This document shows, in pieces, positions 15,896 through 32,000 of a stretch of DNA of 32,000 bases; the stretch's first letter is position 1; each line of letters begins with the position of its first letter. The stretch comes from Bilophila wadsworthia ATCC 49260 (GTDB lineage Bacteria; Desulfobacterota; Desulfovibrionia; Desulfovibrionales; Desulfovibrionaceae). The DNA lies in contig NZ_JNJP01000002.1 in assembly GCF_000701705.1 (NCBI RefSeq), positions 175,210 through 207,209 of the forward strand. The letters are read 5' to 3'. The position numbers and the translations under genes were made by a program. Under the pieces are notes generated by a model. The model was not told the DNA's origin, ran no database searches, and saw only the letters and a program-made list of their open reading frames with translations.

Positions 15896-16054
15896 GTGCC
15901 CCATACAGAGCCATACCGACTACAACCTTCCCTGCCACACAGCCCATCCGCTGAACAAAATAGCGCGGGTACGCTTTGAAACGGCAGAGGAACATTGATG
16001 AAGAGTTTCCACATCCCGCTCAGACGAAGCCGCCATTTCCAAAACAGAACAGCA

Positions 16055-16097
16055 AACAAAAAGGCCGGAGAACTGCTTCTCCGGCCTTTCCTTCTTT
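16055..16097. terminator. Bidirectional intrinsic terminator between the convergent tssM and GGDEF genes
   Basis: Perfect 10-bp stem, GGCCGGAGAA (16063-16072) and TTCTCCGGCC (16077-16086), with a 4-nt loop. An A-run flanks it on the left and TTTCCTTCTTT on the right, giving a U-rich tail in both orientations. Confidence 0.8.
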
Positions 16098-16209
16098 GCA
16101 TAAGGAAGCTTTCTAGAGGCCATTCATAAATCGTCCATTGGAATGGTTGATGAGGATTCGTTCGCCGAAAAATGGAGTTTTCAGCCCATTTCCGAAGGCT
16201 TCTACGCAA

Positions 16210-17511
16210 TTATTCCAGCACGGTTCCGTTCCGGCCTTGCTGCTTGACCTGGTAGAGGGCCTTGTCCGCCTTGCTGTAGAGATCCGCAAGCGAGGATGGG
16301 CCGTTTCCGAACGCGCCGCCAATGCTCAGGGTCACGGACAAAGGCTCTTCTCCCGCACGGCAATCAAGCAACCGGGCGCGCAGGGCATCCAACCTTTCAC
16401 GCACGATTTCGCGAGATCTGACGCCGCGAAGAAAAATCACAAACTCGTCCCCACCCCAACGGCAGAGCACATCGCCGGACCGGAAGGATTTCCGCATGGA
16501 ACTGCCCATGTATTGCAGGACCGAGTCCCCCGCGAGGTGCCCGAAGCGATCGTTCACGCTCTTGAAATAGTCGATGTCGAGCAACAGAAAACAATAGCTG
16601 GAGGAAGCCCCCACCAAATCCAAATGCTCGGAAATGAGCTTTTCCGCCGCAGCCCGGTTGAGCAACCCGGTAAGCTTGTCGTGGCGGCTGGTGAGCATGA
16701 GCTGGCGGTTCGCTTCCTCAATCTTGCGGATGGAGGTCATGTCCTGTGCGAAGAGCAGCACGTATTCGCCCCGCAGATCAAGAGTATCCTTGACCAGGGT
16801 GCTCCTGATGAGCAGCTCGTGCCGGCCGTCCTCATAGATGACATTGCAGAACATGGAGACGGTCCCGCCACCGTTCTCCCTGATACGCGCCACCAGGTTA
16901 TCAAGGGCAAAATACTGTATGTAGTTTTCCCGCTCCTCCGGGACGACCACATTTTCCGCAAACCAGAGAATCTGTTCCTTGAAGGTCTGCTGCGGCAGCA
17001 TCTCCCCGTTGCCCGCGCCGATGACGGTTGTGCTCATGCCTGTCCGAACATCCACAGTCATGAAATTCTCGCACAGGTTGGACACAATAAAATTGATGCA
17101 GCTGTTCTTGAGCGCAAGGATGTTGGCGTCGCGGATTTGTTCCATCACCTCATCGGTTTCATCCCGCAACGCCGCAAGAATATGCTTTTCGTCACCCGGC
17201 AGAAATTTGAGGTTCCGGCACAGACAAATCCCGTCGTCGCGCCGGATGCGGTACTGGACAACGGCCTTCTCCACCGAATCGACCAGCTTCAAAATGCGAT
17301 CACGCTCCGTATGGCGCCGGAAGAACTCGCGCTCCTCTGGCAATACGTACTTTGCAAGAACCTCCATGCCCTCTTCATACGTCCCTTCGGAGGGGACCAC
17401 ATTGAACAATTTCTTACTCAGCACGAGCGTATGGTACTGCCCATTCTCACGATTGAAAACGAAGACGGCATCATAATCGCGGAGCAACAGAGACTTGGAA
17501 AAATCTTCCAT
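16210..17511 (-). CDS. Diguanylate cyclase: two PAS-like sensory modules plus a GGDEF domain
   Basis: 433-aa ORF containing RHDKLTGLLNR, LLLDIDYFKSVND and an intact GGDEF motif (nt 16441-16455). An RSGD I-site (RxxD) lies five residues upstream of GGDEF (nt 16471-16482). The N-terminal ~260 aa have no TM helix and contain two PAS-like segments (YRIRRDDGICLCRNLKFLP, and VIYEDGRHELLIRSTLV...LLFAQDMTSIRK). Confidence 0.93.
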   Translation of the reverse strand: MEDFSKSLLLRDYDAVFVFNRENGQYHTLVLSKKLFNVVPSEGTYEEGMEVLAKYVLPEEREFFRRHTERDRILKLVDSVEKAVVQYRIRRDDGICLCRNLKFLPGDEKHILAALRDETDEVMEQIRDANILALKNSCINFIVSNLCENFMTVDVRTGMSTTVIGAGNGEMLPQQTFKEQILWFAENVVVPEERENYIQYFALDNLVARIRENGGGTVSMFCNVIYEDGRHELLIRSTLVKDTLDLRGEYVLLFAQDMTSIRKIEEANRQLMLTSRHDKLTGLLNRAAAEKLISEHLDLVGASSSYCFLLLDIDYFKSVNDRFGHLAGDSVLQYMGSSMRKSFRSGDVLCRWGGDEFVIFLRGVRSREIVRERLDALRARLLDCRAGEEPLSVTLSIGGAFGNGPSSLADLYSKADKALYQVKQQGRNGTVLE

Positions 17512-17632
17512 AAAAAAACACCTTGCCCGGCAACCTCAACCAAACATCTTTGGCGGGACACAACCGGGCGCAAATGGGGAAATATGCCTCCCTCCATCCC
17601 AAAGTTCCAACCTGACGTCAAGGGATAGCGCG

Positions 17633-18131
<499 letters not shown>

Positions 18132-19478
18132 ATGCACGGCAAGGCGTTGATCAACGAGGCATTGAAGGGGAACCCCGTCGAGCGGACCCCCTGGGTTCCC
18201 TACACCGGTTCCCAAATCGCCAACCTCAAGGGGTATACCGCGCAGGAAATGTTCCGCGACGCGGACAAGCTGTACGAATGCTGCATCGAGGCGGAGTCCC
18301 AATACTCCCCGGACGGCATGACTCCCATGTTCGACCTGCAAGTCGAAGCTGAAATCCTCGGCTGCGATCTCGCATGGTACGACAACACCCCGCCCACCGT
18401 CTGCTCTCACCCGCTCGAAGGCGAGCTCGTCATCCCCACGCGGCGCATCCAAAAGACCGACGGGCGCATCCCGCTCATCCTCGACGTCATGCGCCGCTTC
18501 AAGGCCGCCAAGCCCGACATCGCCATGTACGGCCTCGTCTGCGGCCCGTTCACCCTCGCCTCGCACCTGCGCGGGACCAACATCTTTATGGATATGTACG
18601 ACGATGAGGACGGCGTGAAGGCCCTCGTCGCCTACTGTGAGGAAGTCGTCCGTGAGGTTGCGGACTACTACATCGAGGCCGGGTGCGACATCATTGCCGC
18701 CGTGGACCCGCTTGTCTCTCAGATCTCCCCGGACATGTTCGAAACCTTCCTGAGCGAACCCTACACGAAGTTCTTCGCCTCCATGCGCGAAAAGGGTATG
18801 CCCTCCTCCTTCTTCGTCTGCGGCGACGCCACCAAGAACATCGAACCCATGTGCCTCACCAGGCCCGACTGCATCGCCATCGACGAAAACGTCGACATCG
18901 TGGAAGCCAAAAAGCTCACGGACGCCCACGGCATCACCATTTCCGGCAACCTCCAGCTCACCATCACCATGCTGCTCGGCACGCAGCAGGACAACCAAAA
19001 GGCCGCCATCGAACTGATGGACAAGATGGGCACGCACCGCTTCATCCTCGCGCCCGGCTGTGACGTTCCTTTTGACGCCCCCGCCGCGAACCTCATCGGC
19101 GTGGGGCAGGCCGTGCACAACCCCGAAGCCGTCCGCAAGGCGCTTGAAAGCTACGTCGCCAAGGACAATCTGCCGGAAATCGAAATGCCGGACTACGTCA
19201 ATCTCGACCACGTCCTCGTCGAGGTCGTGACCATCGACTCCAAGACCTGCGCCGCCTGCGGCTACATGGTCGCAACCGCCAACAACGCCGCCAAGATTTA
19301 TGGGGACAAGGTCAAAGTCGTCGAACGGTCCATCATGTTCCCCGAGAACCTCGCGTTCGTGAGCAAGGTCGGCCTGACGAACCTCCCCTCGCTCCTCGTC
19401 AACGGCGTCATCAAGCACATCTCCCTCATCCCCACCGTCGAAAAGCTGCGGGAGGAGATTGAGGAAGCGATGAAGTAG
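18132..19478 (+). CDS. URO-D-family (MtaA/MtbA-like) methylcorrinoid methyltransferase fused to a C-terminal thioredoxin-like CxxC domain
   Basis: The start was set at the ATG at 18132, with AAGGAG 6 nt upstream; the track's 18087 start has no RBS. The body is URO-D/MT2-like (CGPFTLASHLRG, DPLVSQISP, FFVCGDAT, ILAPGCDVPFD). The last ~90 aa (VLVEVVTIDSKTCAACGYM...LPSLLVNGVIKH) resemble small thioredoxin-fold redox-active-disulfide proteins. The CAAC motif lies at nt 19248-19259. Confidence 0.75.
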   Translation: MHGKALINEALKGNPVERTPWVPYTGSQIANLKGYTAQEMFRDADKLYECCIEAESQYSPDGMTPMFDLQVEAEILGCDLAWYDNTPPTVCSHPLEGELVIPTRRIQKTDGRIPLILDVMRRFKAAKPDIAMYGLVCGPFTLASHLRGTNIFMDMYDDEDGVKALVAYCEEVVREVADYYIEAGCDIIAAVDPLVSQISPDMFETFLSEPYTKFFASMREKGMPSSFFVCGDATKNIEPMCLTRPDCIAIDENVDIVEAKKLTDAHGITISGNLQLTITMLLGTQQDNQKAAIELMDKMGTHRFILAPGCDVPFDAPAANLIGVGQAVHNPEAVRKALESYVAKDNLPEIEMPDYVNLDHVLVEVVTIDSKTCAACGYMVATANNAAKIYGDKVKVVERSIMFPENLAFVSKVGLTNLPSLLVNGVIKHISLIPTVEKLREEIEEAMK

Positions 19479-19482
19479 AACA

Positions 19483-19575
19483 GAGGATGGAGGGAAGAGG
19501 AAACCCTTCTGAAGAGGGATTTTCCTCCCCACCCCGCCCCTTTCCTGCCCAAGGCTTTGAAGGTGGGGAGGCGGC
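19483..19575 (+). repeat. Intergenic repeat family, copy A
   Basis: Begins 5 nt after the TAG stop. The sequence reads GAGGATGGAGGGAAGAGGAAACCCTTCTGAAGAGGGATTTTCCTCCCC...CCCAAGGCTTTGAAGGTGGGGAGGCGGC. About three quarters of positions match copy B by eye alignment. Confidence 0.8.
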
Positions 19576-19685
19576 GCGGCGGGAGTCCCTATCGGACTGA
19601 AAACGGACAGGATACGGAGTTTTCTCCAAAAGGGGCAAAGAGAGGCTCGGGCCTCGGCTCTTCCCCACAAGGCAGGATTGACGGA

Positions 19686-20570
19686 ATGCGCAAGGAACTG
19701 ATCATCCTCTCCGGCTTTCTCGGAAGCGGCAAGACGACGCTGCTGCGGTCGCTCCTGCTGCGTCACTCGGATCGGAAGATAGCCGTGCTGCTGAACGACT
19801 TCGGCGACATCCCCGTGGACGGGGAAACCCTGCGCCGCTCCGGCGTCGAGGGCGGCGTAGTGGTGGAGATCGGAGGCGGATCGGTATTCTGCTCGTGCCT
19901 GCGGGAGCCGTTCATCAAGACGCTGGCCAACCTCGCCGCCCGCGACGAGGATCTGATCATCGTGGAGGCCTCCGGCATGTCCGATCCCTCCGCCGTGGAC
20001 AAGATGCTCCGGCTCTCCGGCCTCGACGGCCTTTTTGAGCACACCTCGACCATCTGCCTGTTCGATCCCGTCAAGAGCCTCAAGCTGGCGCGCGTGCTGG
20101 AAGTCATCCCGCGCCAACTGGCCTCGGCCAGCGTCGTTGTCCTGACCAAGGCCGACATCACGACTAAGGAGGAACGGGACGCAGCCCGCGCCTATATCCG
20201 CTCGCAGGAACCCGACCTCCCCATAGTGGAAAGCCATAACGGAAACGCGGATTTTGCCTCCCTGCCCGAACGGGCGCTTCGCCTGTTCCCGGTCGGATTC
20301 AATACCCCGGAGACGCGGCCCGACTGCTTCGCACTGGAAGCTGTCAGGACCGACGCCAAGACGCTGCTCGACGCCCTGACCGCCGACGGAAACGTGCTGC
20401 GGGTCAAGGGGTATATCCGAGCCGCCGACGGCGTCCGATTCGTCTCGGATACCGGGCAGGGTTTTGAAACGATGGAAAGCCGGGACGCGCCGATACCCCT
20501 CATGATCATCTGTATGCAGGGAACCGCCGGAGCCGTCCGCGCCGCATTGCACGCGGCGGGCATCGCCTGA
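19686..20570 (+). CDS. CobW/COG0523-like G3E P-loop GTPase
   Basis: The start was set at the ATG at 19686 (MRKELIILSGFLGSGKTTLL, Walker A). It also carries VEASGMSDP and LTKAD (NKxD-like) motifs and a CobW_C-like tail. The usual CxCC metal motif reads C-S-C-L here. The track's TTG start at 19557 lies inside repeat copy A. Confidence 0.8.
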   Translation: MRKELIILSGFLGSGKTTLLRSLLLRHSDRKIAVLLNDFGDIPVDGETLRRSGVEGGVVVEIGGGSVFCSCLREPFIKTLANLAARDEDLIIVEASGMSDPSAVDKMLRLSGLDGLFEHTSTICLFDPVKSLKLARVLEVIPRQLASASVVVLTKADITTKEERDAARAYIRSQEPDLPIVESHNGNADFASLPERALRLFPVGFNTPETRPDCFALEAVRTDAKTLLDALTADGNVLRVKGYIRAADGVRFVSDTGQGFETMESRDAPIPLMIICMQGTAGAVRAALHAAGIA

Positions 20571-20597
20571 ATCAGCACAACCTTTAAGGAGCATACC

Positions 20598-21245
20598 ATG
20601 AGCGCTATTTTGCAGGACATTTCCGAGAAGTTGCAGAAAGGGAAAATGAAGGAAGTCGCCGAGCTGGTGAAGCAGGCCGTCGCCGACGGCATCCAGCCCC
20701 TGACCATCCTCAATGAGGGCCTCATGCCCGGCATGGACATCATCGGCGAACGCTTCAAGAAAAACGACATCTTCATCCCCGAAGTGCTCATCGCGGCCCG
20801 CGCAATGGCCGCCGGAACCGATGTCCTGCGTCCCCTCCTCGTGGGCGACCAGATGGAAGAAAAGGGCACCGTCGTCATCGGCACCATCAAGGACGACCTC
20901 CACGACATCGGCAAGAACCTTGTCCGCATGATGATGGAATCCAAGGGCCTCAACGTCATCGACCTCGGCAACAGCGTGCCCCCGGCCAAATACATTGAAG
21001 CCGCCGCCAAGCACAACGCCGACATCATCGCCTGTTCCGCCCTGCTCACCACCACGATGGTCCACATCAAGGATGTCGTGAAGGGCGTGGCCGAGAGCCC
21101 CCTCGCCGGAAAGGTCAAAATCATGATCGGCGGCGCACCCGTCAATGACGCCTTCCGCGAGTCCATCGGAGCCGATTATTACACCCCCGACGCCTCCTCA
21201 GCCGCGGAAAAGGCCCTCGAAATCTGCGCCGCCGCGAGGGCGTAG
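20598..21245 (+). CDS. mttC: Methylamine-type corrinoid protein (MttC/MtbC family)
   Basis: 215-aa ORF with the B12-binding DxHxxG motif (DDLHDIGKN). It has an N-terminal helical cap (IFIPEVLIAARAM) and a Rossmann-like tail (ADIIACSALLTTTM, IMIGGAP). AAGGAG lies 6 nt upstream of the ATG. Confidence 0.9.
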   Translation: MSAILQDISEKLQKGKMKEVAELVKQAVADGIQPLTILNEGLMPGMDIIGERFKKNDIFIPEVLIAARAMAAGTDVLRPLLVGDQMEEKGTVVIGTIKDDLHDIGKNLVRMMMESKGLNVIDLGNSVPPAKYIEAAAKHNADIIACSALLTTTMVHIKDVVKGVAESPLAGKVKIMIGGAPVNDAFRESIGADYYTPDASSAAEKALEICAAARA

Positions 21246-21253
21246 AAAAACAT

Positions 21254-21355
21254 TATGGGAACCGGGGGAAGGAAGAAGGAACCCTTCTGAAGAAGGGTTG
21301 CCCCTCTCCCGGGCCCCTTCCACCTCCCAAGACGTTTGACTGGTGGGGAGGCGGC
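21254..21355 (+). repeat. Intergenic repeat family, copy B
   Basis: Begins a few nt after the mttC TAG stop. It contains a perfect 8-bp hairpin, AACCCTTC-TGAA-GAAGGGTT (21280-21299), followed by CCCCTCTCCCGGGCCCCTTCCACCTCCCAAGACGTTTGACTGGTGGGGAGGCGGC. It shares the terminal GGTGGGGAGGCGGC with copy A. Confidence 0.8.
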
Positions 21356-21527
21356 CCGCAAGAAACCCCTCTGTATGGAAGGAATGGAGCGGAGGCGAAA
21401 CGGAAACCCCGCCGCCGGGAAACACGGCAAAGAGGCGGTCCGCCTCTCCCATGCTTCCCGCCGCAAGGCGGCTCCTCCCACCCAAACGGCCCCGGCAACC
21501 CCGCCACCCGGCGGAAAGGAAACGGAT

Positions 21528-22238
21528 ATGCACCTCATCGCCTGCGAAGTCTTCCGCCCCGAGCTGGAACGCCTGACGCGAGCCATGCGCAACGCGCCCG
21601 AGGTGACGTATCTCGAACAGGGCCTCCACGACACTCCGGACGAACTCCGCCGCCGCGTACAGCAAGCCGTCGACGCGCTGGAAGCCAAGGGCGAAACGGT
21701 CATTTTCCTCGCCTACGGCCTGTGCGGGCGCGGGCTTACCGGCGTGACCGGGCACACCGCGACTCTGATCCTCCCCCGCGTCCACGACTGCATCCCGGTC
21801 CTGCTCGGGGCGACGCAGGAACAAGCCAACGAATCATCGCTCGGCGGCGGCACTTACTGGCTCTCCCCCGGCTGGCTCCGCTACTCGCAAACCTCGTTCA
21901 TCCAAAACCGCGAGAAGCGCTTCAAGGAATACGAGGAACGGTTCGGCACCGATTCCGCGGCCTACCTCATCGAACTCGAAGGATCGTGGCTCAGAAACTA
22001 TACCAACGCCTGCCTGATCCTCTGGGAAGGCTGGGAAGACGAACGGGAACTCGTCCGGACCGCCAAAGCCGTGGCCGACGACGCCGGGCTCGGCTACCGG
22101 GAACTTCCCGGAGACCCGAATTTCATCCAAGCCCTGCTCGACGGCGGCAAGGACGGGCGCTTCATGCGCATCGCTCCCGGCTTCACGCCGGATCTCGACG
22201 GTAACGGAACCATTACAGCCGTGCGGGTGACATCATGA
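21528..22238 (+). CDS. DUF1638-family protein
   Basis: The start was set at the ATG at 21528 (MHLIACEVFRPELE), with GGAAAGGAAA upstream. Motifs LAYGLCGRG and LPRVHDCI are present. This family is typically found beside corrinoid methyltransferase genes. The stop overlaps the next ATG as ATGA. Confidence 0.65.
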   Translation: MHLIACEVFRPELERLTRAMRNAPEVTYLEQGLHDTPDELRRRVQQAVDALEAKGETVIFLAYGLCGRGLTGVTGHTATLILPRVHDCIPVLLGATQEQANESSLGGGTYWLSPGWLRYSQTSFIQNREKRFKEYEERFGTDSAAYLIELEGSWLRNYTNACLILWEGWEDERELVRTAKAVADDAGLGYRELPGDPNFIQALLDGGKDGRFMRIAPGFTPDLDGNGTITAVRVTS

Positions 22239-24025
22239 ATGTTTCAATCACCGTCCGCCACTGCGGAGAAACCACAACCCTCCGCGCCGAGGCGGGAACG
22301 CCCCTCGCTCCCCTGCTCCGCGAAGCGGGTTTACTCACCCTGCCCTGCGGCGTCGGCAAGTGCGGCAAGTGCCTCATCCTCGCCGCCACCGAACCCTGCG
22401 CCGAGGAACGCGCCCTGCTCGGCGACGCAGCCCTCGCTTCCGGGCTGCGCCTCGCCTGTTACACCCGCGCCGCTGAGGGGCTCGACATCGCCCTTCCGCA
22501 GGCCGGGGCCCTGCGCGTGCTCACCCGGTTCGCGCAATCGGACTACCCGTTCCGGCCCATCGTGGAGCGCCGCTCCTTCGCCATGCCCGAGCCGTCCCTC
22601 GACGACCAGCGCAGCGACCTGCAACGCCTCATCGACGCCTGCGGCGCAAAGGGCCACGCCCTCGGCCTCGGCCAGCTCGCCGCCCTGCCCGCCTTCATAC
22701 GCAACGCCCGCTCCAACGGCGGGTGCGGCGACGGGCACGGCAACGTGTGCGGCTTCGGCCTCATGCATGGGGAAACCCTCGTCGGCTATACGGCCTCGGA
22801 TGAGGCATACGCCCTTATCGTGGACATCGGCACCACCACCGTCGCCGCACTGCTCGTGGACACGGCACGCAGGCGCGTGGTCGCGGCACGCGGCGAACAC
22901 AACGCCCAATCGCCCTACGGCGCGGACGTCATCAGCCGCATCCGCCACGAAACGGAATGGGAAGAACACCGCAACGGCCCGAACCCGCTGCAACAGGCCA
23001 TCGCCAAGCAGGTTTCCGCAATGCTCGCCGGGCTGCTGGAACAGGCCGGGATCGGCGACGTGGACTTCCTGTCCCTGACCGGCAACACGACCATGATGCA
23101 CCTGCTCTGCGGGCTGCCCGGCGAACACATCGGCAAGGCCCCGTTCATCCCCGCCACGCTCGAACCCATGCGCCTGCCCGCCGCCGATCTGGGCATCGCC
23201 TCGCAAGCCCCCGCGTTCCTGCTACCCGGCATTTCCGCCTATATCGGCGCGGACATCGTGGCCTCGCTCCTCGCCGCCGACGCCCACCGCAGCCAGCCGC
23301 CCTTCCTGCTCGTCGACCTCGGCACCAACGCCGAAACCGTGCTCTGCGCAAGCGGCACGCTCTACGCCTGTTCGGCGGCCGCCGGGCCATGTTTCGAGGG
23401 CGCAACCCTTTCCTGCGGCATGGCCGGGCAGGATGGGGCCATCGATACCGTTTCGCCCGACCCGGAACGCGGCCTGTCCTTTACCACCATCGGCGACGCG
23501 CCTGCGCGCGGGCTGTGCGGCTCCGGGGTACTGGATGCGCTGGCCCTGCTGCTTGACGCCGGGATCGTGGACGAAACCGGACGCCTCGAAGCCGACGCCT
23601 CCCCGCTCGGCGCACGTATTACGGACGACGCGCTGACCTTCACGGATTCGGTGCGCTTCACCCAGAAGGACATCCGGGAAGTGCAGCTCGCCAAGGCCGC
23701 CGTGCGCGCGGGCATCGACATCCTGCTGCGGGAGGCGGGCATGGAAACCGCGGATGTGGCCCGCCTCTACCTTGCGGGCGGCTTCGGTTCCGCCATGCGC
23801 CCGGAAAGCGCGGCCCGCATCGGGCTCATCCCCGAAGAACTTTCCGACCGGGTCACGGTGCTCGGCAATGCCGCCGGTTCCGGCGCGCTGCGCTATGCGA
23901 CCGAGGAAGGCGCGGCCGAAAGCGCCCTCGGCATCATCCGCCGTACCCGGTACATCGAACTTTCCGCCCACGCGGGCTTCACCGACGCCTACGTGGAACG
24001 GATGCTCTTTCCCGAAAGGGAATGA
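22235..24025 (+). CDS. RACo-type reductive activator of corrinoid proteins (2Fe-2S ferredoxin domain plus ASKHA ATPase domain)
   Basis: 596-aa ORF. The N-terminal part has a plant-type ferredoxin cysteine pattern (LPCGVGKCGKCLI...RLACY). It is followed by an ASKHA-fold region (IVDIGTTTVAALL, LVDLGTNAE, LCGSGVLDA, LAGGFGS). Confidence 0.85.
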   Translation: MNVSITVRHCGETTTLRAEAGTPLAPLLREAGLLTLPCGVGKCGKCLILAATEPCAEERALLGDAALASGLRLACYTRAAEGLDIALPQAGALRVLTRFAQSDYPFRPIVERRSFAMPEPSLDDQRSDLQRLIDACGAKGHALGLGQLAALPAFIRNARSNGGCGDGHGNVCGFGLMHGETLVGYTASDEAYALIVDIGTTTVAALLVDTARRRVVAARGEHNAQSPYGADVISRIRHETEWEEHRNGPNPLQQAIAKQVSAMLAGLLEQAGIGDVDFLSLTGNTTMMHLLCGLPGEHIGKAPFIPATLEPMRLPAADLGIASQAPAFLLPGISAYIGADIVASLLAADAHRSQPPFLLVDLGTNAETVLCASGTLYACSAAAGPCFEGATLSCGMAGQDGAIDTVSPDPERGLSFTTIGDAPARGLCGSGVLDALALLLDAGIVDETGRLEADASPLGARITDDALTFTDSVRFTQKDIREVQLAKAAVRAGIDILLREAGMETADVARLYLAGGFGSAMRPESAARIGLIPEELSDRVTVLGNAAGSGALRYATEEGAAESALGIIRRTRYIELSAHAGFTDAYVERMLFPERE

Positions 24026-24118
24026 GGCTGGAAAGGGGGAAACCTTTCCGGCGAACGGGACACCCGCGCGGATTGCCTTTTCCCCCCGGCTCTCACCCTC
24101 CTTTTTCCAAAGCGCTCG
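24026..24118 (+). repeat. Intergenic repeat family, degenerate copy E
   Basis: Starts directly after the TGA stop. The sequence reads GGCTGGAAAGGGGGAAACCTTTCCGGCGAACGGG...CCTTTTCCCCCCGGCTCTCACCCTCCTTTTTCCAAAGCGCTCG. It has the same arm order as copies A to C but is more divergent. Confidence 0.5.
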
Positions 24119-24272
24119 CAATGCGATGCGGGAAAAAAGTGTTCCTTATGAATGAGGGTGCGGAAACATCCCGTTCGGGACATCCCCCGGAACTTTCCGG
24201 GCGAACAACGGCAGAGGCACGGCGGACCCGTTCCGCCTTACGATACGCTTCAGCAAACCCAGAGAGGCTTGT

Positions 24273-25793
24273 ATGAAAAGATGGGCACATTCCAGTCTGA
24301 TGGGGGGAGTCGGCGTCGGCCTGAACTTCCTCCGCGAAAAGGACTGCGAAAAGATCCATGAGGCATCCCTAGAAGTCCTGCACGACCGGGGCGCGTACTT
24401 CGACAGCGAAACGGCACGCGAAGTCCTGCGCGACCACGGCTGTTGGGAAGACGCGGACGGCTGCACCCATTTCCCGCGCACGCTTGTGGAAAGCGCGCTG
24501 GAAGCGGTCCCCGCCGAGTTCGTCCATCGCGGCAGGACGCCCGACGACGATATCCACATGGCGCAGGATCAGGTGTATGCCTCAAACTTCGGCGAAGGCA
24601 TCTTCACCCATGACCTTGAAACCGGCGAACGCCGTTCCACCGTCAAGCAGGACGCCGTCGACATCCTGCGCGTGGTGGACTCGCTCGACAACATCCACAT
24701 CTACAACCGCGCCATCGGCCCGCAGGACGTGCCGTCCGAATCCGCGTCGATGCACAATGCGGAAGTGGCGTTCTGCTACACCAGCAAGCCCATGCACCTG
24801 GTGTCCGGCAGCCCCTTCCAGACCAAGAAGATGATCAAGATGGCGGAGATCGCCGCCGGGGGCAAGGAAGAGCTCAAAAAACGCCCCCGCACCGCCTTCA
24901 ACCACACCACGATCAGCCCGCTCCGCATCTCGCATGAGGCCTGCGAAAACGCCATGATCGTGGCCGAGGCCGGGCTCCCCAACCACATCCTCGTCATGGT
25001 GCAGCAGGGCGCGACCTCGCCCATCAGCTATGCGGGGAGCGTGGCCGTACACAACGCGGACTTCCTCGCCTTCAACACCCTGTTGCAATGCGTGAACAGG
25101 GGCAACCCCACCCTGTACGGCGCGTCCGCCTGCGTCATGGACATGAAAAAGGGCCTTTCCCTCGTGGCGGCCCCCGAAGTGTTCGTGCTCAACGCGGCAA
25201 TGGCCCGGATGTCGAAATACTACAATATCCCGAGCTACATTGCCGGTGGATAGACGGACAGCATATGCAACGACGTGCAGGCCGGAGCCGAACGCGCTCT
25301 CAACCGCCTGATGACCGCGCTGGCAGGTGCCAGTGTTCTTTTCGGTCAGGGTATGCTTGAGACGGGACTTACGTTCGACATCCCGACCCTGCTCGTGGAC
25401 GACGAAATCATTGATTATGTGCTGCGGATGCTGGCTGGCTTCAAGGTTGACGCCACAACCCTCTCCACAGACCTGATCAAGGAAGTCGGCCCCTTCGGCA
25501 CGTACCTCGCTGAAATGAACACCTTCGAACATCTCGGCGACCTCAGCACCTACAACCTCATGAACCGCCGGAACTACGACATGTGGGCCGCCTCCGGGAA
25601 GCCCGATCTCTATGGGCAGGCCCGCGAACGCGCCAAGGAAATCCTCGCCACCCATAAGCAGAAGAACCCCTTGAGCCCCGAGCAGGTCAAGGCCATCCGT
25701 GACGTCCTTGTGGACGCGGAAGGCGAACTCGGCGTCGCAGACTTCTGGAAGGGCAAGGAAGAGAAGCGCTTTATCGACAACGACCTTTATTAG
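24273..25793 (+). CDS. mttB: Trimethylamine:corrinoid methyltransferase MttB with an in-frame UAG (predicted pyrrolysine) at codon 327
   Basis: Track ORFs 24273..25253 and 25275..25793 are in the same frame. Only the TAG and seven sense codons (TDSICND) separate them. Read through, the product is 506 aa, a normal MttB length. The sequence is MttB-like on both sides of the TAG (...MSKYYNIPSYIAGG-TAG-TDSICNDVQAGAERALNRLMTALAGASVLFGQGMLE...). The gene sits within a complete MttC, RACo and MT2 context. Confidence 0.88.
25251..25253 (+). other. In-frame amber codon (candidate pyrrolysine codon) inside mttB
   Basis: The TAG was read directly from ...gcc ggt gga TAG acg gac agc.... The frame is continuous on both sides. 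Confidence 0.85.
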
Positions 25794-25826
25794 GGCATCC
25801 CAAAGCGAAAAGGCTCTAACGGGCCG

Positions 25827-25910
25827 TCCGGCGGGGCTTCGGGTCCCCGCCGGAGTCGGAAAGATACCCGGCGCGTTTTCCTTTCCTCCTCTTGGGGAAA
25901 ACGCGCCGGG
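25827..25910 (+). other. Two perfect long stem-loops downstream of mttB
   Basis: The first has a 10-bp stem, TCCGGCGGGG (25827-25836) pairing with CCCCGCCGGA (25845-25854). The second has a 15-bp stem, CCCGGCGCGTTTTCC (25867-25881) pairing with GGAAAACGCGCCGGG (25896-25910). Neither is followed by a clear U-tract. Confidence 0.7.
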
Positions 25911-26044
25911 GCACAAAACGGCCTTTCTTCGTTCCCCCCTCTATGCGGAAAAAACGACGTCCTGCCGCCGAATCTGCTCCCGTGCACAACGGGACGAACT
26001 TTTCCACGGAAAACCGCGCCATACCCGCCAAGGAGCACCGTGCC

Positions 26045-27088
26045 ATGACCATGACATCAAGAGAACGCTTCGCCGCGATGCTGAATCACAAGACGCCTGA
26101 CCGGATGCCCGTATACCCGCTGGTGAACAGCATATCGCGCCAGTCGCTCGGCATTACCTATGAAGAATGGACCAAGGACATCAACAAGTGCGCCGAGGCG
26201 ATCATCCGCACCACGGACGAACTCGAACTCGACTGCCTGTGCACGCTGGTCGACCTCTCCGTGGAGGCCGCCGACTTCGGGCAGGAACTGCTGTACTTCA
26301 AGGACAAGGCCGCCTGCCCTGATCCCGCGCAGCGCGTCGTCCCCACCGAGGGGGATTACGACAAGATCCCCCGCATCGATCCCGCCAAGGGCAAGCGCAT
26401 GAGCGAACACGTGGAACTCTGCCGCAAGCTCGTGGAGGCGCGGGGCAAGGACAAGCCCGTGGTGGCCTTCGTGTTCGGGCCGCTCGGCATCGTCAGTATG
26501 CTCAGGGGCCAGCAGGAAATGTTCATGGATCTGTATACCGCCCCGGACGAAGTGAAAAAGGGCGTGGAGATCGTCTCCGACGTGCTCTGCGATTGGATCG
26601 ACCAACTCTGCGCCACGGGCATCGACGCGGTGATGTTCGATACGCTGTACGCCTCCCGGTCGATCATGAGCGCGGAGATGTGGGACGAGTTCGAGGGCGT
26701 CTACATGACCCGCATCGCAGAACGCGTGCGCTCCCACGGCTGCGCGGTGATGATCCACAACTGCGGGCAGGGCGCGTATTTTGACGAGCAGTACGAACGG
26801 ATGAAGCCTGTGCTGTTCTCCTTCGCCCACCCGCCGCAGGGCTGCGCGGATATGAAGGAAGCCGTCGAAAAGTACGCCGACAAGATGATACTCATGGGCA
26901 CCATCGATCCCGGTTGGTTCATGACCGCGACTCCTGAAACCCTGAAGGCGCGCGTGGAAGAAGAACTTGCCGTCTTCGGCCCTTCCAAGCGCTACGTCCT
27001 TTCGACCGGCTGCGAATACCCCGCCTGCCTCGACTTTGCCTTCCCCCGCCAGATGGTGGATATGGCGAAGGCGTACACCTACAAATAA
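26045..27088 (+). CDS. mtbA: URO-D-family methylcorrinoid methyltransferase (MtbA/MtaA-like MT2)
   Basis: The start was set at the ATG at 26045, with AAGGAG 9 nt upstream. The 347-aa product reads MTMTSRERFAAMLNHKTPDRMPVYP. It retains the H-x-C...C zinc motif (MIHNCGQG with H at 26756-26758 and C at 26762-26764; LSTGCEYP). The gene symbol is by family resemblance only. Confidence 0.78.
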   Translation: MTMTSRERFAAMLNHKTPDRMPVYPLVNSISRQSLGITYEEWTKDINKCAEAIIRTTDELELDCLCTLVDLSVEAADFGQELLYFKDKAACPDPAQRVVPTEGDYDKIPRIDPAKGKRMSEHVELCRKLVEARGKDKPVVAFVFGPLGIVSMLRGQQEMFMDLYTAPDEVKKGVEIVSDVLCDWIDQLCATGIDAVMFDTLYASRSIMSAEMWDEFEGVYMTRIAERVRSHGCAVMIHNCGQGAYFDEQYERMKPVLFSFAHPPQGCADMKEAVEKYADKMILMGTIDPGWFMTATPETLKARVEEELAVFGPSKRYVLSTGCEYPACLDFAFPRQMVDMAKAYTYK

Positions 27089-27164
27089 AGGCGGGCTATC
27101 CCCATCCCGCCCTCCGCCCGCGGTTCCCCCGAACCCGCGGGCAGAGCTTCCCGGAACGGGGCCG

Positions 27165-27330
27165 CGCGGCGGAAGGGCCGGTTTCCCTCTCCCGGGCCCG
27201 CCAGCGTCCGGCCCCGTCATCAAAAAACGGGGCGGGCCGCCCGTTCCCCGCCTTCCCGCCCCCCATGCCCCGGCTATACAGATATTTCTCCTGCCCAGCC
27301 CCTCCCCCTCCCCGCTCCAGACTCCGGATC
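27165..27330 (+). repeat. Intergenic repeat family, degenerate modules (copy D)
   Basis: GGAAGGGCCGGTTTCCCTCTCCCGGGCCCG resembles the core of copy B. CCCCTCCCCCTCCCCGCTCCAGACTCCGGATCG resembles the CCCCCTCCCAAGACTTTCGA tail of copy C. Other GC-rich hairpins surround these modules. Confidence 0.4.
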
Positions 27331-27518
27331 GCCCATGATGCCCCTCAAGCGGCACCCCGCCTTGCTCCGTCCGGATGAAGGGCCTTTGCCGCCCCATTTT
27401 CCGATCGAGATTTTTTTCCCATGCCGCTCCGAAAAGCTGGACAAGGGGGCTCTTCTGATATATGAGATAACCAACGGATGCGGAAAAGACGCACGATCCG
27501 GCGGCACGCGCCGCCATG

Positions 27519-27559
27519 CCTTTTGAGGTGCTATCATGGCAGTCCTCAAAAGGTTTTTC
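27519..27559 (+). terminator. Orphan intrinsic terminator in the mtbA-cbiK intergenic region
   Basis: Perfect 10-bp stem, CCTTTTGAGG (27519-27528) pairing with CCTCAAAAGG (27544-27553), with a 15-nt loop, followed by TTTTT. There is no U-tract in the minus-strand sense, so it is specific to the plus strand. Confidence 0.7.
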
Positions 27560-27809
27560 AGGGGAAACCATATGCAAGGCGCCGAGGTATTTCGGAACGG
27601 TTTAAGAAAAAAATCGCTTTCTGATATTCCTAACGCCCTCAACCCCCTTGAAGCCGCCGTGCAGGTAGGGTAAAACAATCTAATGTAGGCCGGAGGAACG
27701 GTGCGCAAGCGCCGTGATGCCCCGGAAAACAGGCGGGAGATCGCCCGCCAGCCCTCCGCCAAAAACCAACCCCGCCGGGCCAAGTGCCCCGCCGCAACCA
27801 ACGCAACCG

Positions 27810-27968
27810 TTTCAGGTGCCCGAATATTTCGGGATAATTGGGAAGTTCGTAAAAACGACGCTGACCCCGCAACCGTGAGAGGGGATGAACCCGCAACAGC
27901 CACTGTGGACGCCGTCTACGGGAAGGCGCGGGCAAAGAAGATCCTCAAGCCGGGAAACCAGCCTGAAA
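27810..27968 (+). ncRNA. Cobalamin (B12) riboswitch
   Basis: P1 pairs TTTCAGG (27810-27816) with CCTGAAA (27962-27968). The P2 hairpin is CCCGAA-TAT-TTCGGG. The conserved core reads AATTGGGAAGTTCGTAAAAACGACGCTGACCCCGCAACCGTGAG. A GCCACTG element lies at 27899-27905. A B12-box-like AAGCCGGGAAACCAGCC follows GGGAAGGCG. The aptamer sits about 65 nt upstream of cbiK. A hairpin GGTCCA...TGGACC abuts the SD sequence AAGGAG. Confidence 0.85.
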
Positions 27969-28034
27969 ACTCATATGGTACGGACGCCGCCAAGCGTTCC
28001 GTCCGGTCCACGATGATTGGACCAAGGAGTTGCC

Positions 28035-28907
28035 ATGAAAAAATGTTTCGTCATGGTTCTGCTGTGCTGCCTGCTGGTGGCCGGAACCGCCTTCGCCAAG
28101 ACGGGCACCCTGCTCGTCGCCTTCGGAACTTCGATGGACAGTGCAAGGCCCGCAATCGACGACATCGAAAAGGCCTACAAGAAAGCCGCCGGGAATGAAC
28201 CCGTGCTTCTGGCCTTCACCTCGGACATCATCCGCAACAAGCTGGCCAAGGAAGGCAAGCCCGTCCTCTCCGTCAACGCCGCGATGAATGAGCTCGCCGC
28301 GCAGGGCGTGACCGATCTCAAAATCCAGTCCCTGCACATCGCCCCCGCCGAGGAATACAACCAGCTCGAACGCATGGTCGTCAAAAACATCACCAAGAAT
28401 CCCGGCGTATTCAAGACGGTCAAGGTCGGCTATCCTCTCCTCGTCTCTGAAAAGGATCTCGACGCCGTCGTCAAGGTGGTGCTCGCTTCCCTGCCCAAGG
28501 ATCGCAAGCCCGGCGACGCCGTGGTGCTCATGGGCCACGGCAACGACCGCGGCCCCGGCGACCTGACCCTCGCCGCCACTGCCGCCGCCTTCCACAAGGC
28601 CGATCCCCACGTCTGGCTCGCCACCGTCGAAGGCTCCAACAGCTTCGACAACGTCCTGCCCAAGCTCAAGGCTTCCGGCGCCAAGCGCGTCTGGCTCCAG
28701 CCCTTCATGATCGTTGCGGGCGACCACGCCAACAACGACCTCGCCGGGCCGGAAGAGGATTCCTGGGCCTCCCGCATCAAGGCTGCCGGGATGACCCCCA
28801 TGCCCAACCTCAAGGGCCTCGGCCAGCTCAAGGGCATTCAGGACATCTTCCTCAGCCACACCCAGAACGCCGTTGTCGATCTCGCCAACACGAAGAAAGC
28901 GGATTAA
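28035..28907 (+). CDS. cbiK: Sirohydrochlorin cobaltochelatase CbiK carrying a signal peptide (periplasmic CbiK-P type)
   Basis: The start was set at the ATG at 28035, with AAGGAG 5 nt upstream. MKKCFVMVLLCCLLVAGTAFA|K is a Sec signal with an AFA cleavage site. The body is CbiK-like (LLVAFGTS, LKIQSLHIAPAEEY, VLMGHGN, WLQPFMIVAGDHANND). Confidence 0.85.
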   Translation: MKKCFVMVLLCCLLVAGTAFAKTGTLLVAFGTSMDSARPAIDDIEKAYKKAAGNEPVLLAFTSDIIRNKLAKEGKPVLSVNAAMNELAAQGVTDLKIQSLHIAPAEEYNQLERMVVKNITKNPGVFKTVKVGYPLLVSEKDLDAVVKVVLASLPKDRKPGDAVVLMGHGNDRGPGDLTLAATAAAFHKADPHVWLATVEGSNSFDNVLPKLKASGAKRVWLQPFMIVAGDHANNDLAGPEEDSWASRIKAAGMTPMPNLKGLGQLKGIQDIFLSHTQNAVVDLANTKKAD

Positions 28908-28909
28908 GT

Positions 28910-28995
28910 GAGGATGGAATAGCGAAAGAATCGGAGGGGGAAGGGGAACCTTTCTGGAGACGGGCTTCCCCTTCCCCCTCCCAAGACTTTCGACC
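28910..28995 (+). repeat. Intergenic repeat family, copy C
   Basis: Begins 2 nt after the cbiK TAA with GAGGATGGA, as copy A does. A perfect 13-bp stem pairs GGGGGAAGGGGAA (28936-28948) with TTCCCCTTCCCCC (28966-28978). The tail is CTCCCAAGACTTTCGACC. Confidence 0.8.
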
Positions 28996-29256
28996 TTATC
29001 GAATCCCTTTTCACGGCTTTCCCTGTAAGCCCAAAAAAAGGTCTGCAATACGGCATTGCCCCTCTCCTTAAAGACGTTCCGTCCCTTCAGAGGCAAGCTC
29101 ACAGAAAGTCGCCATTTTTGCAGAAAAACAAAATATGGTTCCCCCTTTCCTATCCTACAGAACAGAAACCGTTGGAGAGAAAGGGGGAGGTTCGGGGAAA
29201 GGCGAGAGAAGCCCTTCCTTTCTCCGAAAACATCAACCCACTACAAGGATTTTACC

Positions 29257-29958
29257 ATGAAACCGGGAAAACTGTACGGCGTGGGCATCGGCCCCGGCGA
29301 CCCTCGGTACCTGACCCTCCGGGCGGCGGACGTGCTGCGCTCCGTAGACGTAATCTTTACCGTCATCTCCCAAAACGCATCGAGCAGCGTTTCCCGGTCC
29401 GTGGTCGAATCCCTCGAGCCACGCGGAGAAATCCATCTCCAGATCTTCAGCATGTCGCGTGACAAGGCCGTCCGCGCCGCGCAGGTGCAGGCCAACGCCG
29501 ACGCCATCATTACGGAACTGAAAGCGGGCCGGGACTGTGCCTTCGCCACGCTCGGCGACGCCATGACCTACAGTACATTTGGTTATGTTCTGGAAATAAT
29601 ACGTGAATCCATCCCTGGCGTGGAATTGGAAATCGTCCCCGGCATCACCTCCTTCGCCACTCTGACGGCGAAAGCCGGAACTGTGCTCGTAGAAAACGGC
29701 GAACAGCTCAGAGTCATCCCATCCTTCAAGTCGGAAATGGCCGAAACGCTGGACTTCCCCAAAGGCTCCACCACGATTCTCCTCAAGACCTACCGTAGCC
29801 GCAAGGCGCTGGTGGAACGCCTCAGGCGCGAGGAAAATGTGGAGATCCTGTACGGCGAACATCTGGCAATGGAGGGGCAGACCCTCCTGACCGATCTGGA
29901 TGCCGTTGCCGACCGTCCGGAAGAATACCTGTCGCTCATCATGGTCAAAAAGCAATGA
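29257..29958 (+). CDS. cbiL: Precorrin-2/cobalt-factor-2 C20-methyltransferase (CbiL/CobI)
   Basis: The start was set at the ATG at 29257 (MKPGKLYGVGIGPGDPRYLTLRAADVL). The body is tetrapyrrole-methylase-like (FATLGDAMTYSTF, EIVPGITSF). The track's 5' extension to 29056 crosses intergenic repeats. Confidence 0.88.
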   Translation: MKPGKLYGVGIGPGDPRYLTLRAADVLRSVDVIFTVISQNASSSVSRSVVESLEPRGEIHLQIFSMSRDKAVRAAQVQANADAIITELKAGRDCAFATLGDAMTYSTFGYVLEIIRESIPGVELEIVPGITSFATLTAKAGTVLVENGEQLRVIPSFKSEMAETLDFPKGSTTILLKTYRSRKALVERLRREENVEILYGEHLAMEGQTLLTDLDAVADRPEEYLSLIMVKKQ

Positions 29959-31205
29959 AACGCGGACGCCGCCCTCTTCCGCCTCCGTGGAGGCGCCCGA
30001 GCCGCATCCTGTGGTTCGTTCTGGCCGTCATCGGAGCCTGTTGGCTTACGCTGCACATGCCGGAATCCCACATGATGCGCCCGAAGCCGGAACAAAACGG
30101 CACGAGCGCCCCCACAAGCCGGATGCACCGGCCCGCTCCCGTCAGTGAGGCTATGGACGCGGATGTGGGCGAAGACGCCGTGACTTCCTCCGGGCCGACA
30201 AAGATGGATACCGCGGCCCCCCGCATGAAGCGGCACGCGCCGCTCACCCCGGCGGAAAAAATCTTCGCCAAGATGAAAACCTTCGGACGCCTGTTCGCCA
30301 TCGTGGGCATCGCTGCCTTCCTTGGAGGGCTGATGGAGGCGCGGCGCTGGCACATGGCGCTGGCGCGGGTCATGGGCAAGCTGGCCCGGATGGCCCGGCT
30401 CCCCGAGATCGTGGGCCTTGCGATGCCGACCGCGCTCTGTTCCAATGCGGCGGCCAACAGCATACTGGTCAGCAGCCATGCCGACGGGCATATCCGCACC
30501 TCGGCGCTCATTGCGGGCGGCATGGCGAACAGCTATCTGGCCTACGTCTCGCACTCCATCCGGGTCATGTATCCGGTGCTCGGAGCCATCGGGCTTCCGG
30601 GGGCGCTCTACTTCGTGGTGCAGTTCTCGGGCGGGTTCATCGTCATTCTCGGCGTCCTGCTCTGGAACCGCTGGTATGTCTCCGGGCACGGGGATACGCC
30701 CGTTTCCGGCATTCCCCCGGTAGACGAAGCTCCGCTTGGGTGGCCTTCCGCCGTGGGAAAAGCCGCCGTCCGATCGCTGACGCTGCTGTTTCGCATGGTG
30801 TGCATCACGGTCCCGCTGATGCTCTGCATCGAATGGCTGTTGAAGAACGGCGCGTTCAATTTCTGGGAGCAGTATGTCCCTGATCAGGTGAACCGTTTTT
30901 TCCCTGCGGAACTGGTATCCGTGGTCGCCGCGCAGATGGGCGGCTTGGTGCAGTCTTCCGCGGTCGCCGCGAACCTCAGGGCCGAAGGGCTCATCGACAA
31001 CGCGCAGATCCTGCTGGCGATGCTCGTCGGGAGCGCGGTGGGCAACCCCTTCCGCACTCTGCGGAGGAATCTCCCTTCGGCGCTCGGGATTTTCCCCGTG
31101 CCCGTCGCGTTCGCCATAGTCATCGGTATGCAGCTCTCGCGCTTCGTCGTTACCCTCGTCGCCATCGCCGGGGTCATCGCGTTCATGCATTATGTGTTGT
31201 ATTGA
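29955..31205 (+). CDS. Polytopic membrane protein of unknown function (possibly the nucleoside-recognition/Gate-domain type)
   Basis: 416-aa ORF whose ATG overlaps the cbiL stop as ATGA. The N-terminal ~100 aa are Arg/Pro-rich and low-complexity. Multiple hydrophobic helices follow (FAIVGIAAFLGGL, LGAIGLPGALYFVVQFSGGFIVILGVLLW, MVCITVPLMLCIEWLL, VPVAFAIVIGMQL). The family assignment is tentative. Confidence 0.5.
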   Translation: MKRGRRPLPPPWRRPSRILWFVLAVIGACWLTLHMPESHMMRPKPEQNGTSAPTSRMHRPAPVSEAMDADVGEDAVTSSGPTKMDTAAPRMKRHAPLTPAEKIFAKMKTFGRLFAIVGIAAFLGGLMEARRWHMALARVMGKLARMARLPEIVGLAMPTALCSNAAANSILVSSHADGHIRTSALIAGGMANSYLAYVSHSIRVMYPVLGAIGLPGALYFVVQFSGGFIVILGVLLWNRWYVSGHGDTPVSGIPPVDEAPLGWPSAVGKAAVRSLTLLFRMVCITVPLMLCIEWLLKNGAFNFWEQYVPDQVNRFFPAELVSVVAAQMGGLVQSSAVAANLRAEGLIDNAQILLAMLVGSAVGNPFRTLRRNLPSALGIFPVPVAFAIVIGMQLSRFVVTLVAIAGVIAFMHYVLY

Positions 31206-31207
31206 AC

Positions 31208-31252
31208 TTGGAGGGGGAAGGAGTTCGTTCCCGCGAAAGACGTTGAAGAGGG
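31208..31252 (+). repeat. Intergenic repeat family, short degenerate copy G
   Basis: Starts 3 nt after the TGA stop. GGAGGGGGAAGGAGTTCGTTCCCGCGAAAGACGTTGAAGAGGGG shares the purine arm and the AAGACGTTGA tail with copies B and C. Confidence 0.4.
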
Positions 31253-31358
31253 GAGCAGGCGAGGGACACGGAAAAGCCGCAATGGTGGAGCAACAATGAA
31301 ACGGGATTATTGAACCAGCGGCATACGAAAAAGCGAAACTCTTGTTGCCGGAGGCGGC

Positions 31359-32000
31359 ATGAACATACGTTGGAATTTGAGCGGAATGGAAATCGAGCGG
31401 GAGAGTTTCCGTGTCATCGAGTCGGAGTGCGATCTCCACAAGCGGATGCCCGCACCGGAATGGCGTGTGGCGCGCCGCCTGATCCATACCACAGCGGACA
31501 TGTCCATCGCGGACACGCTGGTTTTCCGGCATGACGCCATCGGCTCGGGTCTGTGCGCGTTACGGGCTGGGGCGCCGATATTCTGTGATTCCAAGATGAT
31601 CCGCGCCGGGCTTTCCATCGAGCGGTTGAAGAGGCTGAATCCCGGTTACGGTCCCGAAAGCCTGCACTGCCATATCAGCGATCAGGACGTCATCGATCGC
31701 GCCAAACTCGAAGGCCACACCCGTGCCCTGTGCAGCGCGGAGAAGGCGCGGCCCATGCTTGACGGGGCCATCGTGCTCATCGGCAACGCTCCGCTGGCGC
31801 TGGCCCGCATTGCCCGGTACGCGCTTGAGGAAGGCGTGCGGCCCGCCCTTGTCGTCGGGATGCCCGTCGGATTTGTCAACGTGGTGGAGTCAAAGGAACT
31901 TCTTGCTCAGTGCGATGTCCCCCAGATCGTCCTTGAAGGACGGCGCGGCGGCAGCGCCCTCGCCGTCACCACGCTTCACGCCGTTATGGAGAGCGCGTAG
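31359..32000 (+). CDS. cbiC: Precorrin-8X/cobalt-precorrin-8 methylmutase (CbiC/CobH)
   Basis: 213-aa ORF with IHTTADM, LIGNAPLAL, VVGMPVGFVNVVESKE and GRRGGSALAVTTLHAV motifs. GGAGG lies upstream of the ATG. It ends with a TAG at 31998-32000, the last bases of the window. Confidence 0.9.
   Translation: MNIRWNLSGMEIERESFRVIESECDLHKRMPAPEWRVARRLIHTTADMSIADTLVFRHDAIGSGLCALRAGAPIFCDSKMIRAGLSIERLKRLNPGYGPESLHCHISDQDVIDRAKLEGHTRALCSAEKARPMLDGAIVLIGNAPLALARIARYALEEGVRPALVVGMPVGFVNVVESKELLAQCDVPQIVLEGRRGGSALAVTTLHAVMESA

Follow-up and report, generated by a model that had tools for sequence, protein, structure and literature searches.

Probable pyrrolysine decoding of an in-frame TAG in mttB of Bilophila wadsworthia, and a candidate RNA element downstream of it

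The trimethylamine (TMA) methyltransferase MttB of Methanosarcina barkeri (7XCL, 7XCM and 7XCN; PMC9842639) belongs to the TIM-barrel MttB family, has pyrrolysine (Pyl) as residue 334 and is encoded near its cognate corrinoid protein, MttC. Non-Pyl members of the superfamily, such as MtgB of Desulfitobacterium hafniense (2QNE), share its fold and its type of corrinoid partner but differ in having a sense codon in place of TAG and in using quaternary amines as substrates. Here we describe the mttB gene in a 32,000-nucleotide stretch of Bilophila wadsworthia ATCC 49260 DNA (the window), which is interrupted by one in-frame TAG at codon 327, the counterpart of Pyl334. The data support the interpretation that this is a single gene whose UAG is decoded as pyrrolysine to give an MttB-type enzyme, and we consider this very probable.

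This very gene has been described before in Bilophila. Borrel et al. (2014) placed B. wadsworthia among the Pyl organisms (PMC3941956). Kivenson & Giovannoni (2020) reported that the in-frame TAG is conserved in mttB of Bilophila, that public annotations truncate the gene, that PylS is split and that the pyl genes are not adjacent, and they found transcripts in gut samples of humans and mice (PMC7593587). MAGICdb (2023) gives 1,071 Pyl-type mttB genes from Bilophila (PMC10653893). A study from 2025 has reported expression of mttB in mice (PMC12125255). The first-pass annotation of the window named Bilophila among the bacteria reported to carry pyl genes, which was correct, but it did not mention that the first three of these papers already cover this case. 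The gene described in PMC7593587 and PMC10653893 is the same gene, with the same TAG position, truncated annotation, neighbouring corrinoid protein and RamA-like activase, and distant pyl genes. The pyrrolysine-coding mttB of Bilophila is thus correct but already known, because it was published in these two papers. Pyl-dependent TMA demethylation by Bilophila has been proposed (PMC7593587) as a way in which bacteria dispose of TMA that the liver would otherwise convert into trimethylamine N-oxide; our confirmation of mttB adds nothing to that picture, and most public annotation still shows the gene as two pieces. What may be of interest is how UAG, an ordinary stop in about 30% of the nearby genes, is read once as pyrrolysine. 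Two leads are worth follow-up: a conserved RNA stretch after the TAG and an altered pair of active-site residues.

The TAG codon and the active site of MttB

The gene and its internal TAG are located as follows.

24273..25793, + strand: mttB, a 506-codon read-through gene for a Pyl-type MttB-superfamily corrinoid methyltransferase (open reading frame, Pfam, PDB and NCBIfam matches)
25251..25253, + strand: in-frame TAG, predicted to specify pyrrolysine as codon 327 (opposite X334, Pyl, of 7XCL in the alignment)

The frame runs from the ATG at 24273 to a terminal TAG at 25791-25793, and the TAG at 25251-25253 is its sole interruption, giving 326 + 1 + 179 = 506 residues. It is also the only internal TAG across the 20 window genes taken as real. 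The list of open reading frames (ORFs) cuts the gene into 24273-25253 and 25275-25793, the second starting from the first GTG after the stop, seven codons on. The first-pass annotation had described two ORFs in one frame, separated only by the TAG and seven sense codons, with two MttB-like halves and a joined length of 506 amino acids, and the sequence bears this out. The halves match contiguous parts of the 500-position MTTB profile PF06253 in Pfam (32-337 and 341-491), and the MttB-superfamily domain spans the whole length of the read-through protein in both the PF06253 and the 7XCL alignments. The peptide predicted around the TAG, YIAGG-O-TDSICNDVQAGAER, agrees with the translation. The N-terminal half is identical to MEF2679318.1 of B. 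wadsworthia and is found on at least 1000 contigs. Public records mostly split the gene into pieces of 326 and 172 amino acids, as do gene callers; a 506-amino-acid product is called in GCA_054601175.1 (NCBI), which is 99.97% identical to the window over the part that it covers (12229-32000).

Alignment of the TAG with the Pyl residue had been put forward as a check, and we used a phmmer search of the read-through protein against PDB sequences. MttB residues 14-478 align with M. barkeri MttB (7XCL, 7XCM and 7XCN) over 465 residues (E=3e-70, 240 bits). Codon 327 falls exactly on Pyl334, which is X334 in 7XCL and K334 in 7XCM, and the block around this site is gap-free and of high confidence. 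The expectation that non-Pyl homologues carry a sense codon here also held, as MtgB (2QNE) has Leu at the position of the TAG. A protein close in score to 2QNE, 9YCE, is deposited as a glycine betaine methyltransferase. The only NCBIfam match of MttB is TIGR02369, the Pyl-type TMA methyltransferase family.

The same alignment shows that Gly110 and Met249 of M. barkeri MttB are retained as Gly107 and Met242. Two other active-site positions are altered.

25341..25343, + strand: codon for Phe357, the counterpart of catalytic Tyr364 in M. barkeri MttB (7XCL alignment; invariant in the clade)
24594..24596, + strand: codon for Glu108, at the position of Thr111 of M. barkeri MttB, which forms the Gly110-Thr111 cis peptide (alignment)

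Both replacements are found in 16/16 clade members. Gly110 and Tyr364 have been reported as fully conserved among Pyl-MttBs, Tyr364 in 100% of 66 enzymes, and the Y364F change lowers Vmax about 28-fold (PMC9842639). This raises the question of whether the Bilophila enzyme truly behaves like archaeal MttB. That TMA is the substrate is something we infer, because the Tyr364 and Thr111 positions are Phe357 and Glu108 throughout the clade. The two replacements may be the sign of an MttB whose proton relay has changed or which acts on another substrate. The Tyr364-to-Phe change is absent from those parts of PMC7593587 and PMC10653893 that were available.

The pyl genes and selection across the TAG

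A search with PylSc of one relative as the query returned a cluster with 789 members, of which some bear the name Bilophila wadsworthia. On B. wadsworthia-type contigs pylT(CUA), pylSn, pylSc, pylB, pylC and pylD form a cluster in this order, at a separate locus that does not adjoin mttB. The Pyl proteins of one such contig (L021) all score above the NCBIfam equivalog cutoffs (TIGR03912, TIGR02367, TIGR03910, TIGR03909 and TIGR03911). The full cluster with pylT, which lies upstream of pylSn on L021 and on L023 with 13 similar places, is the common arrangement, and the tRNA-Pyl has 94% mean column identity to the tRNAs of relatives. In Mailhella-like relatives pylT(CUA), pylSn, pylSc, pylB and pylC are within 10 kb of mttB. 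In the mechanism that we propose, ribosomes would read the UAG at codon 327 with tRNA-Pyl(CUA), presumably inserting pyrrolysine; the tRNA would be charged by the split PylSn/PylSc synthetase, and the pyrrolysine would be made by PylB, PylC and PylD, encoded at the separate locus. The predicted product is a 506-residue MttB-type enzyme with pyrrolysine in its active site.

The region upstream of pylSn also contains a long G/C-rich palindrome (GGGGAGGGGAGGAAGGGACTTTCTCCAGAAAGTCCCTTCCTCCCCTCCCC; L021, 9540-9640), possibly a repeat, close to which several assemblies break (contig starts of L024-L028).

Several observations weigh against this reading. The first-pass annotation saw no pylT, pylS or pylBCD in the window, and a tRNA scan found no tRNA there and tblastn no homologue of pylS, pylB, pylC or pylD. 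It proposed a search for pyl genes elsewhere in the genome. The species proved to have pylT, pylSn, pylSc and pylBCD at a separate locus on B. wadsworthia-type contigs, which favours the prediction at the level of the species; a pylT in the genome of the window itself is presumed. One B. wadsworthia-type contig (L022) has pylSn to pylD with no pylT within 10 kb upstream, which echoes the published failure to detect pylT in strain ATCC 49260 (PMC7593587). At the protein level, MttB scores 470.3 bits with X at residue 327 and 472.6 bits with K against TIGR02369, below the cutoff of 525, a difference from M. barkeri MttB that would make automatic equivalog naming fail. The specificity for TMA or the rate of turnover may differ given Phe357 and Glu108, as judged from the sequence. 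TAG is a true stop codon in 6/20 window genes, including mttC, the first MT2 gene and mttB itself. Finally, we found no protein-level or enzymatic proof in the available papers.

The absence of pylT beside the pyl genes of some strains or contigs (L022; PMC7593587) would fit a low level of read-through in which a near-cognate tRNA, in strains lacking pylT at the least, inserts an ordinary residue and little or no TMA activity results. However, the full cluster with pylT is the common arrangement, and the retention of TAG by lineages for as long as described below implies a dedicated decoder. We regard near-cognate read-through as very improbable. The segment at 9150-9660 of L022 has a different upstream flank (the CobU side) from L021 and L023, and this may be a strain polymorphism or a rearrangement.

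After the TAG that terminates mttB, the next in-frame stop is 84 codons away. Because TAG is common as a true stop, read-through cannot be unconditional. UAG is not reassigned genome-wide, and something must limit or direct the read-through. In these respects pyrrolysine decoding in Bilophila resembles that in Acetohalobium arabaticum, another bacterium in which TAG is both a stop and the Pyl codon of mttB. In A. arabaticum (the work of Prat and colleagues, 2012) the pyl genes reportedly adjoin mttB and are switched on by TMA, so that Pyl decoding is conditional; Bilophila differs in the location of its pyl genes. Both the split PylS and the lack of avoidance of TAG as a stop codon set this bacterial host apart from M. 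barkeri.

We compared mttB in 13 species-level Desulfovibrionaceae genomes (77-99% identity). The patterns used in a further scan of metagenomes were clade-specific and returned only Bilophila-like loci, and five more distant genes (57-77% identity) were then fetched singly. TAG is at codon 327 in 13/13 genomes and is followed by exactly 179 further open codons wherever the contig extends far enough. All 29 full-length metagenome copies have the same TAG and the same 179-codon downstream frame. The five distant genes also keep the TAG and this downstream frame, and the TAG is retained in 16/16 lineages compared, down to 57% amino-acid identity. The ratio of non-synonymous to synonymous substitution rates (dN/dS) relative to the window is 0.05-0.13 after the TAG, equal to that before it. 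In a set of 20 B. wadsworthia copies, 49 codons are polymorphic synonymously and 6 non-synonymously; of these, 15 and 1, respectively, lie after the TAG.

A pseudogene, in which the TAG is a real stop, only the 326-residue fragment is made and the remainder is decaying, would agree with the way in which gene callers and most public records split the gene, and with the use of TAG as a normal stop in this genome. However, lineages divergent enough to have saturated synonymous sites retain the TAG and an open frame of exactly 179 codons, and the part after the TAG is under purifying selection both between species and within B. wadsworthia; mttB is therefore not a pseudogene, or at least the probability that it is one is minimal. 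The split-gene outcome that the first-pass annotation had allowed for is likewise not what the alignment and the downstream selection indicate. A split enzyme, assembled without pyrrolysine from residues 1-326 and a C-terminal piece restarted at the GTG at 25275 or a later ATG, is hardly credible: a start-type GTG does lie seven codons after the TAG in the window, and gene callers place the start at codon 335, 347 or 361 depending on the relative, but the seven codons from the TAG to the GTG encode a conserved peptide (T-D-S-x-C-x-D) that aligns with the post-Pyl residues of M. barkeri, codon 335 is GTT, GTA or TCA in L065-L069 so that the start is not conserved, and the missing residue would be the catalytic one. 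Taken together, the conservation of the TAG and of the frame, the low dN/dS and the mostly synonymous polymorphism make a pseudogene or a two-piece enzyme very unlikely.

Some observations on individual relatives were made in the course of this comparison. The shorter mttB of L005 was considered as a deletion and rejected, as the gap is a scaffold run of 100 N. One of the distant genes (L065, 8963-10483; 57% identity) is a second, divergent paralogue with a TAG in the Mailhella metagenome-assembled genome that also holds L019. Its neighbours encode a BCCT transporter, a glycyl-radical enzyme and the activase of the latter, and this suggests a gene set for the conversion of choline to TMA and on to dimethylamine. 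In L009 ('Bilophila sp.' MGYG-HGUT-01277), codons 328-405 of mttB have a 4-fold-site distance of 0.07-0.12 to the 'Desulfovibrio' gut group and of 0.21 to B. wadsworthia. This affinity is contrary to the whole-gene tree and suggests a local recombination event.

Synonymous constraint and a candidate RNA hairpin after the TAG

The closest described RNA element is PYLIS of archaeal mtmB (RF01982), a conserved RNA just 3' of the Pyl UAG within coding sequence. Read-through drops when PYLIS is altered synonymously, according to the summary in PMC3639795, which found no common structure for mttB. The Bilophila gene has a candidate of the same general kind.

25254..25490, + strand: about 80 codons after the TAG with about half the synonymous change, a candidate cis-acting RNA element (4-fold-site parsimony, RNAalifold)
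25306..25352, + strand: core conserved hairpin, with stems P1 (GCCU/RGGY), P2 (UGACCG/YGGUCA) and P3 (CUGGC-AGGU-GCCAG) and a U-rich 3' internal loop

The number of parsimony changes per 4-fold site is 3.0 before, 1.5 within and 3.2 after the segment (Mann-Whitney p=4.6e-8), and the lowest-scoring 78-codon window of the gene begins at codon 327. The dip is again present when 16 sequences are used (p=3e-7). Pairs of deep lineages show a p-distance at 4-fold sites of about 0.8 upstream of the TAG, 0.35-0.47 over codons 328-405 and 0.6-0.9 beyond, a pattern that holds for nearly all of them. The G+C content at third codon positions (GC3) converges in codons 328-405, falling from 0.85 to 0.73 in high-GC lineages and rising from 0.3 to 0.5 in low-GC lineages, and the dip involves T-ending codons that are rare in the former and C-ending codons that are rare in the latter. 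Within the species the difference has the right direction but is not significant (0.051 compared with about 0.107 synonymous-polymorphic codons per codon, p=0.11).

Three other causes of the dip were considered and rejected. No alternative-frame ORF is open in all lineages (there is none in L016 or L019), so an overlapping gene is not the cause. Recombination does not account for it either: although L009 looks mosaic, the reduction is uniform over nearly all deep pairs, and a single donor could not make GC3 converge in high-GC and low-GC lineages alike. Nor is codon bias at conserved residues the cause, because the dip stays at invariant amino-acid columns (1.63 compared with 3.14 and 3.33). 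We regard the nucleotide-level constraint after the TAG as real.

RNAalifold gives -36.1 kcal/mol for the 240 nt from the TAG, compared with -23.3 +/- 3.3 kcal/mol in codon-column shuffles (z=-3.8; reached by 0/100 shuffles). The other 240-nt windows of mttB have z between -0.2 and -1.7 in the same test. The structure conservation index is 0.43-0.48 in the stretch after the TAG and 0.05-0.19 over most of mttB. The single-sequence fold of the first 126 nt after the TAG shows no excess stability (z=+0.45). As synonymous-shuffle z-scores are confounded by the GC3 shift, the codon-column shuffle at the level of the alignment is the only informative folding test.

The core hairpin begins 52 nt after the UAG, and each of five divergent sequences, when folded alone, has it as the minimum-energy structure. 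Double changes in it replace G-C by U-A in L013 and L066 and C-G by U-A in L065, and the single-nucleotide polymorphisms within the species are in the loop or are wobble-compatible. These pair counts are biased in favour of the structure, which was derived from the same sequences; moreover, most of the pairs never vary, and GC-to-AT drift can mimic some compensatory changes. The inner part of the hairpin (25317-25336) followed by UCUUUUC fits a loose terminator-like pattern, but chance often produces such matches (19 found, 12 expected).

The hairpin is unlike PYLIS in lying 52 nt downstream rather than directly after the UAG, and in being found only in the Desulfovibrionaceae-type mttB clade. 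An Rfam scan of the window at the gathering threshold gave no match to PYLIS (RF01982) and only a cobalamin riboswitch. The element is clade-specific at best, because the P3 stem is not formed by the primer sequence that PMC9842639 gives for M. barkeri. Our tentative proposal, which we hold to be possible but rather doubtful, is that the approximately 240 nt after the UAG are a functional cis-acting RNA element that acts on UAG decoding and that, separately, the Phe/Glu pair marks an altered MttB. Such an element could bias decoding towards tRNA-Pyl and away from release factor 1; alternatively, as a pause or attenuator hairpin, it could make transcription of the distal gene depend on the passage of the ribosome through the UAG. 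If the conserved RNA element is real, it would make testable how a bacterium with an ordinary UAG stop reads one UAG as pyrrolysine. Neither the synonymous constraint nor the hairpin appears in the parts of PMC7593587 and PMC10653893 at hand.

The gene neighbourhood of mttB

The first-pass annotation placed the partner proteins of MttB (MttC, RACo and MT2 enzymes) nearby, and all of them were confirmed; they are listed here with the other features of the neighbourhood.

18087..19478, + strand: MT2-type (MtaA/CmuA, URO-D fold) methylcorrinoid methyltransferase with a thioredoxin-like C-terminal tail (Pfam, NCBIfam)
19557..20570, + strand: CobW-family GTPase within the methyltransferase cluster (Pfam, NCBIfam)
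20598..21245, + strand: MttC-type corrinoid protein, with a B12-binding cap and Rossmann domain (PF02607 and PF02310)
21336..22238, + strand: DUF1638 protein within the cluster (Pfam)
22235..24025, + strand: RACo/RamA-like reductive activase of the corrinoid protein (Fer2 and RACo linker, middle and C-terminal domains)
25892..27088, + strand: second MT2-type (URO-D fold) methyltransferase (Pfam, NCBIfam)
27797-27980: cobalamin riboswitch (Rfam, 105 bits)

The cognate corrinoid protein and the reductive activase are thus both encoded alongside mttB. MttC scores 192 bits against TIGR02370 (pyl_corrinoid), under the cutoff of 215, and RACo is identical to WP_029434562.1 of B. wadsworthia. We propose that MttB would move a methyl group, probably from TMA, to the Co(I) corrinoid of the adjacent MttC, that the neighbouring MT2 enzymes would pass it on to a final acceptor and that RACo would re-reduce oxidised corrinoid. 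In contrast with M. barkeri, coenzyme M is not to be assumed as the downstream methyl acceptor.

The gene mttB lies between RACo and the second MT2 gene in the order MT2, CobW, MttC, DUF1638, RACo, mttB, MT2, and the riboswitch sits between this corrinoid methyltransferase cluster and cobalamin biosynthesis genes (cbiK, cbiC and others). The C-terminal extension of the first MT2 enzyme (residues 383-461) is weakly like a thioredoxin of the MJ0307 family (E=6e-5). Upstream of the cluster there are a type VI secretion cluster and a gene for a GGDEF protein. In the former, an ORF of 719 amino acids on the - strand (6350-8509) has VipA (TssB) and VipB (TssC) sheath domains together and looks like a fused sheath protein of the type VI secretion system.

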